A stretch of DNA of 64,000 nucleotides from a virus (Duplodnaviria; Heunggongvirae; Uroviricota; Caudoviricetes): the IMG/VR virus record IMGVR_UViG_2740892449_000004, one strand, 5' to 3'. The notes beneath the pieces are model-generated. The model ran no database searches. It saw nothing but the letters and a program-made list of their open reading frames with translations, and was not told the DNA's origin. Below, piece after piece: positions 56,968 to 57,971 of the stretch. The first letter of the stretch is position 1, and every line of letters begins with the position of its first letter. The translations under genes were made by a program, and so were the position numbers.

Positions 56968-57895
56968 CCTCTCACTCCATTATTTAACGAATAAAAAAGC
57001 TGCGGTGCCGGGTGCCTCCCGGTGTCCTTTGGCTGGTTATCCACCGTGGACGGGGAAACAAGGAGAAATGAATGGACTGATATAACCATTTCCCCGCGTG
57101 CGCTTAGCCGCATTCACCGCAACGGAAAGAGCATTCTTGGTGGACCTGTAGATTGGGATATGAACCCGTTACAGGAGAATGCTCTTACCTGTTACGTGCT
57201 CCGTTTCGTGGAGCTAACGGCGGGTGATCGGGCCGCACCAGGCTGGACTTATTTCAGCGTTATGCTCATGCCAGAGAATCAAACTGTGATGGTCGGTGCT
57301 GAACTCCGACACAGGGTTGTAGCAAGCCCCGCAAAGCGCGCACTACTGTAGTTGCGGCACATCAGCCTGTGCATTCACCACAATGTTGAGAACACTGGTT
57401 GTCACGCTGCAACGCAACATTTATTCGTAGATTGGGATATGACCCCGTTACGCCAGTGTTCTCAACGTTGTAGTGCCGGTTACGGTTCCGGCCAGGCCTC
57501 TTCCTCAACGGGGTGTTCTCCATACGGACTACCGTTTATTGGTCGTTCCTGCGGTTTATGTTGTGAAGCCAGATGCTTATCTTCTGGTTGCTTCAAAGAG
57601 CTGCACTTCATCACAACGGTAAGAGCACTCGATGCATTTAAGCCAAGCCCCATAAGGGAGAATGCCCTTACCTGTTGTGTTGTGATGACCGGTGCTGATC
57701 TCCGGCTTGCGGTTATTTCAGACTCTCACGGGCGTTTAATTGCCCCGCCGAACAGCTCTTTTCCGCAATAGCTGCAATGTCTTTCGCGCATCAGCCTGCG
57801 CATTCATCACAACGGTAAGGGTACTTCGTAGGGATTCGAACCCTCTGCCAAGCTCGGCGATCTCCGACGTCGCAAAATACCCTTACCTGTTGTGC

Positions 57896-57971
57896 TGGTG
57901 CCGATTAACGGACTCGAACCGCTGACATCCTGCTTACAAGGCAGGCGCTCTACCAACTGAGCTAAACCGGC
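57896..57971 (-). tRNA. tRNA-Thr (anticodon UGU)
   Basis: 76 nt; GCCGGTTTAGCTCAGTTGGTAGAGC...CTTGTAA...GGTTCGAGTCC...CCA. Confidence 0.85.

Follow-up and report, generated by a model that had tools for sequence, protein, structure and literature searches.

The 64,000-nucleotide (nt) window of Caudoviricetes DNA analysed here (IMG/VR virus record IMGVR_UViG_2740892449_000004) contains, at positions 57,100–57,900, a repeat-rich stretch next to two tRNA genes. The repeats are the 5′ and 3′ arms of a single family of RNA hairpins, present in five copies (units E, D, C, B, and A). Judged by its sequence, the window is a P1-like phage-plasmid, and the stretch is the middle of an untranslated leader of approximately 1.7 kb belonging to a C1-repressed P1-type ban operon on the minus strand. 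On balance, the units are probably RNase III processing ("punctuation") hairpins that cut up this leader.

The original prediction, made from the sequence alone, had listed three sets of short repeats upstream of tRNA-Thr and tRNA-Asn and proposed either decayed tRNA duplicates or a structured RNA locus. All three sets exist, far above chance. Its first motif, CATTCACC(A/G)CAA(C/T)GG, is present at each of its four places (57111 and 57801 with one mismatch, 57372 with two, and 57605 with three), in copies looser than claimed; the window holds seven matches with up to three mismatches against 1.6 expected, a number reached in none of 100 shuffles. The second, a 25-nt pair (GATTGGGATATGA(A/C)CCCGTTAC, also written GTAGATTGGGATATGA(A/C)CCCGTTAC), lies at 57148–57172 and 57427–57451 with 96% identity (direct repeat D6). 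The third, CCCTTACCTGTTGTG, occurs exactly at 57665, 57880, and 58319; three matches with up to two mismatches compare with 0.06 expected, and again none of 100 shuffles gives three. Self-comparison of the sequence recovered significant direct and inverted repeats and revealed a relationship that had been missed: the first and third motifs are mutual reverse complements and form the two arms of inverted repeats I1, I3, and I8. The inverted repeats fold into long hairpins (z between −3.0 and −6.3 against shuffled controls). The listed motifs fall on units D, C, B, and A; unit E precedes the tRNAs. The stretch does hold a structured RNA locus: on the strand that is transcribed, a covarying hairpin family is represented by four strong copies and a weak one. 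Because both tRNAs are encoded on the minus strand, transcription reaches them before the stretch, which is downstream of them and not upstream.

Every unit has a 6-bp base (CACAAC/GUUGUG), above which come a GG/CC step, a U·U or U-A position, at least about 10 further pairs, and a freely variable apical insert. A bulged A is found in units D, C, and A (three of the five), and all five units have the family architecture of base, bulge or pair, GG/CC, long stem, and variable insert. On folding, the stems have approximately 19–25 pairs and are irregular, broken by a bulge or mismatch. Upper-stem pairs vary between copies yet stay complementary (GGGUA/UACCC, GAGCAUUCU/AGAAUGCUC, and GAGAACACUGG/CCAGUGUUCUC). 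Three units, D, B, and A, continue past the stem with GGUGAAUGC (in D, GAUGAAUGC) and a small 5-bp tail hairpin, in which GCGCA/UGCGC of unit D is replaced by GCACA/UGUGC in unit B, a compensatory change.

The family was sampled as 83 distinct units from approximately 130 phage loci, comprising IMG/VR loci and annotated loci; a scan of IMG/VR by exact 3′ motif gave at least 120 loci, a mode of retrieval that overstates the conservation of base and tail. In a MAFFT alignment of 57 units and 23 pairs, 96.4% of cells are paired and 16 of the 23 pairs show double changes, which none of 500 shuffles attains; sliding the partner columns lowers pairing to 33–60%. The bulged base is an A in all 70 units with a one-base bulge. 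By our own tally from the stem-pair table, the stems hold approximately 107 G·U and approximately 7 A·C combinations. Because G·U so far exceeds A·C, the functional strand is fixed and the element appears to act at the RNA level.

A covariance model built for the family (R1) gives minus-strand scores of 88 bits for unit D, 72.5 for A, 66 for B, and 57 for C, and 21–27 bits for the same sites on the plus strand; unit E reaches 26 bits. No further R1 match occurs anywhere in the 64-kb window, and none was found in 577 kb of unrelated genomes that share a 16-mer by chance (80 of the 80 listed pattern-scan loci are such chance matches, and serve as a negative control only). Some members were recognized only through the model, and among these the A that is otherwise bulged may be paired and the tail may be missing. 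No Rfam family describes the hairpin; beyond the tRNAs and STnc100, a search at E up to 10 gave only weak miRNA-like, YrlA, tmRNA, and nuoG matches, judged to be chance. The consensus strings appear in no paper reached by full-text search; Faubladier and Bouché (1994), which lies outside that search, may describe conserved dicF-flanking sequences.

On the minus strand, unit E (58251..58334) is a long hairpin without bulge or tail hairpin (−48.4 kcal/mol, z −5.8), with an R1 score of 26 bits on either strand. Unit D (57781..57897; R1 88.2 bits, E 2e-19; fold z −5.6) includes its tail hairpin at 57786–57801 and carries the T-arm-like AGGGUUCGAAUCCCU in its apical insert. It is followed by unit C (57585..57682; 56.6 bits, z −3.6), unit B with tail hairpin GCACAGGCUGAUGUGC (57352..57475; 66.4 bits, z −6.3), and unit A (57095..57199; 72.5 bits). 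Reading of the sequence between the units gave three small hairpins with AG(A/U)U(C/A)AGCA loops, also on the minus strand: h1 (GCCGG-AGAUCAGCA-CCGGU; 57688..57706; direct repeats D5 and D7), which leads through CAUCACAAC into unit C and lies in a spacer 95–98% identical in lambdoid phages; h2 (CCAGA-AGAUAAGCA-UCUGG), preceded by a boxA-like GCUCUUUGAAGCAA (57569..57601 together); and h3 (GUCGG-AGUUCAGCA-CCGAC; 57292..57310; direct repeat D7). The h2 part is approximately 82% identical to the sequence directly upstream of an N-like gene in the P22-like phage SPN9CC, at the nutL position (compare locus L005, 2501–2557).

BLAST finds pieces of the leader, mostly with "no annotation", in Escherichia, Klebsiella, Salmonella, and Cronobacter phages that are lambdoid, P22-like, or of other kinds; Stx-converting phages are among them. 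In the IMG/VR loci, the nearest upstream open reading frames (ORFs) on the same strand include 11 cI-type S24 repressors and 21 Q antiterminators (from three Pfam Q families), and the downstream ORFs include approximately 20 holins. These neighbours place the units in the untranslated leaders of lambdoid PL and PR′ operons, besides that of the P1 ban operon. Some units of PL leaders begin within approximately 10–40 nt of the predicted transcription start. The units of the window occupy the same kind of niche: in the ban leader they follow Pban and precede the first ORF, on the tRNA strand. Across the sample, unit and tRNA share a strand wherever they lie within 400 nt of each other. Arrays of two or three units are common. 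The lambdoid PL leaders hold further tRNA-like fragments, among them a T arm, acceptor 3′ strand, and CCA without a full cloverleaf (L045, 6590–6670), and a motif, GCUGUGUGUAGU, recurs downstream of the units in several of them (L015, L016, and L045).

The stretch is 100% identical to many E. coli plasmids of 92–120 kb and 98–99% identical to the P1-like phages vB_EcoM-813R1, RCS47, and P1; parts of the leader are found in 1445 of 5426 complete E. coli genomes. The assignment to the ban leader follows from this identity (98–100%) and from the P1 and P7 records, which put the Pban operators upstream and ban downstream on the minus strand. The order in the P1 record, read along the minus strand, is Pban/Oban, a "dicF-like region", tRNA-Asn and tRNA-Thr, the stretch that carries the opposite-strand upl and plp annotations, tciABC, a third tRNA, and ban. 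A transcript from Pban would accordingly carry tRNA-Asn, tRNA-Thr, the hairpins, the downstream genes, and ban. In the window, a palindrome at 58702..58739 (inverted repeat I2, without strand) matches the bivalent C1 operator overlapping Pban and marks the start of the ban operon; at the homologous place the P1 record annotates the P1ban and P2ban promoters and the Oban (Op72) operators. ARAGORN and Rfam place tRNA-Asn (GTT) at 57974..58049 and tRNA-Thr (TGT) at 57896..57971, both on the minus strand, and a gap of 1 nt, kept in all P1-like loci, separates the CCA end of tRNA-Thr from unit D.

Irregular hairpins of about two helical turns that lie between the functional units of phage polycistronic transcripts are known from the T7 R1.1-type signals and the RNase III site of the lambda N leader, both cut by the host enzyme. 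We know of no sequence relationship between these signals and the hairpin units; the T7 signals separate mRNAs, whereas the hairpins of the window flank tRNAs and small RNAs and have large variable apical inserts. An RNase III substrate has a stem of about two helical turns (approximately 20 bp or more), and the stems of the units, at approximately 19–25 pairs, have that length. Cuts by host RNase III in the irregular stems of the units would divide the long transcript, yielding tRNA precursors, the downstream mRNA, and small structured RNAs, for example an STnc100-like 5′ untranslated region (UTR). The hairpin stubs left behind would protect 3′ ends, and the 5′-monophosphate ends would invite trimming by RNase E.

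RNase III is proposed because the family member carried by the E. coli K-12 prophage Qin would hold, by calculation, an rnc-dependent end and because the P1 leader is homologous to the stretch of Qin that runs from the RNase III site to DicF. Qin has one family unit between ydfC and dicF (R1 59.5 bits; L131, 2671–2783), with its 3′ arm at 2739–2758. According to a preprint (bioRxiv 10.1101/2023.04.14.536235, citing Faubladier et al. 1990), a 190-nt DicF species is lost when rnc is mutated; the 5′ end of this species is placed "between positions 813 and 814". A step of 190 nt upstream from the DicF 3′ end at 2935 leads to 2746, the RNA length being approximate; counting 813 from the predicted dicBp start (−10 TAATCT at 1926–1931, start at approximately 1938) leads to approximately 2750, on an assumed numbering origin. 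Both positions are within the Qin 3′ arm, and by this calculation the rnc-dependent DicF 5′ end would lie at 2746–2751, inside the 3′ arm of the Qin hairpin. A further report (PMC5069750) describes a second RNase III site in the dicF–dicB spacer, for which the supplement of PMC5371410 gives coordinate 1649470. This spacer holds an STnc100-like element with a 14-bp closing stem, a homologue of which follows unit A in the window. The leader segment homologous to the Qin stretch (58570..58665, minus strand; columns approximately 230–320 of the pairwise alignment with Qin) partly overlaps the "dicF-like region" annotated in P1.

The Qin site (Faubladier et al. 1990; Ragunathan et al. 2023) and the units of the window share the base, a one-nt bulge, the two-pair step after the bulge, and the long stem; both lie in the untranslated part of a repressor-controlled early operon, and the Qin flanks are homologous to the P1 leader. 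Qin differs in having one unit, with a bulged G and without the GGUGAAUGC tail, whereas the window has five units around two tRNAs. By analogy with Qin, RNase III would cleave the P1 copies as well.

Several observations weigh against RNase III processing. Cleavage within the stem that depends on rnc is published for Qin only, and its mapping hangs on an approximate RNA length and an assumed numbering origin. The low sequence specificity of RNase III leaves the strongly conserved base and the GGUGAAUGC tail unexplained, part of that conservation being sampling bias from the search pattern and recent horizontal exchange. Neither the T-arm-like apical hairpins nor the small h hairpins have a role in the model. 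CRISPRi knock-down of the region gives no plaque phenotype (PMC10695390). Finally, Salmonella phage SJ46 lives with a broken stem: in its chimeric unit (L009, 1594–1695) a 5′ arm from unit B meets a 3′ arm from unit A at their shared apical motif, and the two arms do not pair (−24.9 kcal/mol). By the broken stem and the CRISPRi result, the hairpins are dispensable in the laboratory. The SJ46 chimera amounts to a natural knock-out of a hairpin.

RNase III hairpins in phage polycistronic transcripts are of a classical kind, and the Qin member was mapped in 1990; the presence of the same covarying hairpin in the P1 upl/plp stretch and in many lambdoid leaders seems not to have been catalogued. 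Should the units prove to be RNase III punctuation marks, they would account for the way in which these phages derive tRNAs and small RNAs from long untranslated leaders; the small RNAs concerned include those of the DicF and STnc100/PasD types, with effects on host division, metabolism, and virulence. Prophage annotation would gain from a covariance model of the family, and the hairpin offers a natural RNA-processing insulator part for synthetic constructs.

A role as nut- or put-like antitermination elements is unlikely. The boxA-like 8-mer of the 3′ arm, with a spacer and small hairpin, could recruit NusB/NusE or bind RNA polymerase and so let the long untranslated leader pass intrinsic terminators and evade Rho, as happens in CRISPR arrays and rrn operons. 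Within the family consensus, the 3′ arm includes UGCUCUUU, which we take to be the first 8 nt of the E. coli rrn boxA; unit A and unit C contain UGCUCUUU and UGCUCUUA, and a small hairpin comes next. Of boxA, NusB–NusE reads no more than 8 nt (PMC3177189). Terminators lie within unit-bearing leaders, and the units open PL transcripts at the place of nutL and putL; the L045 unit begins approximately 8 nt past the predicted start. The units of the sampled lambdoid PL leaders are not followed by N-like genes, and none is annotated around the ban operon in the P1 record, the whole P1 genome not having been scanned. To our knowledge, P1 has no known N gene. A nut site has a single-stranded boxA (core GCUCUU(U)A) ahead of a boxB hairpin and is acted on by an N protein. 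The likeness to nut, rrn boxA, and put sites is one of position, in an early-operon leader, and of a boxA-like 8-mer with spacer and small hairpin. It is set against the state of that 8-mer, which is locked in a stable stem, whereas boxA is read single-stranded, and which is lost while the stem is kept in covarying or divergent members (unit E, the Qin unit, mEp460 unit 2, L023, L093, and L116). Many units lie downstream of Q, where antitermination is already supplied. The put RNA (PMC9378689) is a V-shaped two-stem fold of approximately 70–74 nt directly after PL or PR. HK022 put was rejected as an identity for the units on this architecture, since each unit is one long stem with a variable insert; R1 has no match in HK022 at 24–30 kb, where the presence of putL is unconfirmed.

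It is rather doubtful that the hairpins are scaffolds for stable trans-acting small RNAs, with apical domains, some of them T-arm mimics, that on this model would be excised and would decoy or sponge up defence nucleases or enzymes directed at tRNA. A canonical T-arm-like apical hairpin is present in 13 of the 83 distinct units, about one in six, with two in a single insert in L004 and L105; in unit D, L013, L027, and L121 the T arm lies a few nt from the 3′ arm, near the arrangement of T arm and acceptor in tRNA, and units are co-transcribed with phage tRNA clusters. The T-arm mimics are enriched, and the resemblance is a real recurring feature; it is not evidence of tRNA descent. Against a scaffold function, most apical inserts are mutually unrelated and without conserved structure, and the tRNA and YrlA models miss the units. 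Equally doubtful is a broader view, of a modular cassette system of temperate enterobacterial phages in which a boxA-mimic stem displays exchangeable apical modules, T-arm mimics included, that RNase III would free as stable trans-acting small RNAs; these might, for example, decoy tRNA-processing enzymes or host defence nucleases directed at tRNA, or sponge up Nus factors. An apical sub-motif in a short stem, A(C/A)GGG(Y)UCAUA(W)CCCAA(Y)C, is shared by units A (57148–57172) and B (57427–57451) and by unrelated lambdoid units (L003, 2730–2760; L096, L033, and L047); it is T-arm-like but lacks the canonical T-loop positions 54 and 58.

The units also change at the level of whole copies. In P7, tRNA-Thr runs straight into unit C; in P1, unit D is fused to the tail of C; and in P7 and D6 an extra tRNA-Ser is followed directly by another unit. 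Between P1, P7, D6, SJ46, Ro157c2YLVW, and the window, whole units have been lost or exchanged, the junctions falling in the shared arms or the shared apical motif, and spacers are 95–98% identical between P1-like and lambdoid phages. These differences could be read as the work of a DNA-level element, a conserved linker or small mobile inverted repeat that aids the exchange of phage modules, and we consider this very unlikely. The excess of G·U over A·C and the fixed orientation to transcription and tRNAs point to single-stranded RNA, and copies are limited to operon leaders, with none elsewhere in the 64 kb. There is no sign of mobility, target-site duplications and transposase not having been looked for, and recombination at repeats is an expected by-product of their presence.

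Descent of the repeats from decayed tRNA gene duplicates, the other proposal of the original prediction, is not supported and is very improbable. The T-arm-like sequence cited for it, GGGATTCGAACCC, is present, at 57832–57844, some 20–30 nt from the claimed 57850–57875; a T arm (GGGUUCGAAUCCC) in unit D, beside two intact tRNAs, and the recurrence of such mimics in the family, are what speaks for decay. No cloverleaf is present, in keeping with the original prediction. Scans by ARAGORN and by Rfam at gathering score, the latter repeated at E up to 10, return as tRNAs the intact ones only (Asn, Thr, and a third with anticodon CAT at 55820–55895), and the tRNA and YrlA models miss every unit even at the relaxed threshold. 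The listed motifs are hairpin arms, not tRNA remnants, and the T-arm mimic in unit D stands isolated and single; in BLAST comparison with 54 phage tRNAs, apical inserts match over the 13–17 nt of the T arm only (13 nt in unit D). A Y RNA-like identity was likewise rejected: YrlA is a Ro-binding stem with a tRNA-like domain, and we know of no Ro or Rsr gene in P1 (the window was not searched for one). The YrlA model (RF02553) matches no unit, and its sole match (25.6 bits, gathering score 69) spans the two true tRNAs. The units resemble tRNA and YrlA in the T-arm-like hairpin of unit D and differ in having no D arm, no anticodon arm, and no covariance-model match.

Hardly credible, too, is the annotation in P1 and RCS47 by which the plus strand codes for two proteins, Upl and Plp. 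Plus-strand ORFs of 109 and 139 amino acids (aa) equivalent to upl and plp do exist (57022–57351 and 57352–57771), overlying the minus-strand hairpins, and PHROG families exist for Upl; two PHROG families match the ORFs over their full length and may mirror the same annotated DNA (their membership was not inspected). Among six P1-like loci, however, upl has 109, 63, or 61 aa or is absent, and plp has 139, 125, 143, 135, 123, or 96 aa, with a TTG start except in SJ46 (ATG) and a frameshifted tail in Ro157c2YLVW; in P1, plp runs into tRNA-Thr. Neither ORF has a Pfam match, and the sequence constraint observed is that of base pairing on the opposite strand. upl and plp are probably annotation artefacts and not genes; the DNA so labelled, copied into many phage and plasmid records, is probably DNA for a structured RNA on the other strand. 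A small peptide from the tail (GTGAATGCGCAGGCTGATGCGC, with an MNAQADA start) was also considered and rejected: it has no Shine-Dalgarno sequence, a GCGTAG variant stops it at codon 4 with the hairpin kept, and the B-type tail change is compensatory for pairing and not synonymous.

Directly 3′ of unit A lies an STnc100-like structured 5′ UTR element (57001..57121, minus strand; fold z −3.5), with a 9-bp long-range closing stem followed by UUUUUU. It matches Rfam RF02076 at 37.8 bits (E 3e-6, model positions 31–147 of 206), below the gathering score of 47, so that membership of STnc100 is not claimed. Homologues precede dicB in Qin and tciA in P1 and P7. The 3′ base of unit A (GUUGCGGUG) can alternatively pair with CACCGCAGC at the end of the element; as this GUUGCGGUG/CACCGCAGC pairing is the closing stem, the element and unit A are mutually exclusive, and a cut in unit A would free the strand for the closing stem. 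STnc100 and PasD, both prophage small RNAs, are located near Q in lambdoid prophages (bioRxiv 10.64898/2026.05.13.724894). The locus resembles these in the STnc100 match directly 3′ of unit A and in the niche near Q common to many units; it differs in that the hairpin units are not STnc100 and that the element, a match below the gathering score, is here the 5′ UTR of the next gene.

Between Pban and the tRNAs, a strong intrinsic terminator hairpin followed by T7 (58522..58541, minus strand) was identified by terminator scan and by alignment with Qin, approximately 175–185 nt downstream of Pban, at the position held by DicF in Qin. The region 58515–58700 (minus strand) shares homology in its 5′ part with Qin's DicF precursor of 190 nt, but DicF itself is not what the terminator hairpin represents. 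The segment from Pban to the terminator could be a P1 small RNA, or a checkpoint at which read-through is needed before the tRNAs and ban.

Downstream of the leader, the first ORF (56731..56967, minus strand) encodes a 78-aa small membrane protein (PHROG 1130) and is followed by an SPFH/Band-7 lipoprotein gene (55923–56750, minus strand; Pfam Band_7), labelled "putative serine protease" in RCS47. These two genes (55923–56967) replace tciA, tciB, and tciC (TerB-like) of P1. The third tRNA, at 55820–55895 on the minus strand, has a CAT anticodon and is called tRNA-Met by ARAGORN (it is also found by Rfam); its homologue is annotated tRNA-Ile2 in the P1 record (ileX-like, presumably lysidine-modified).

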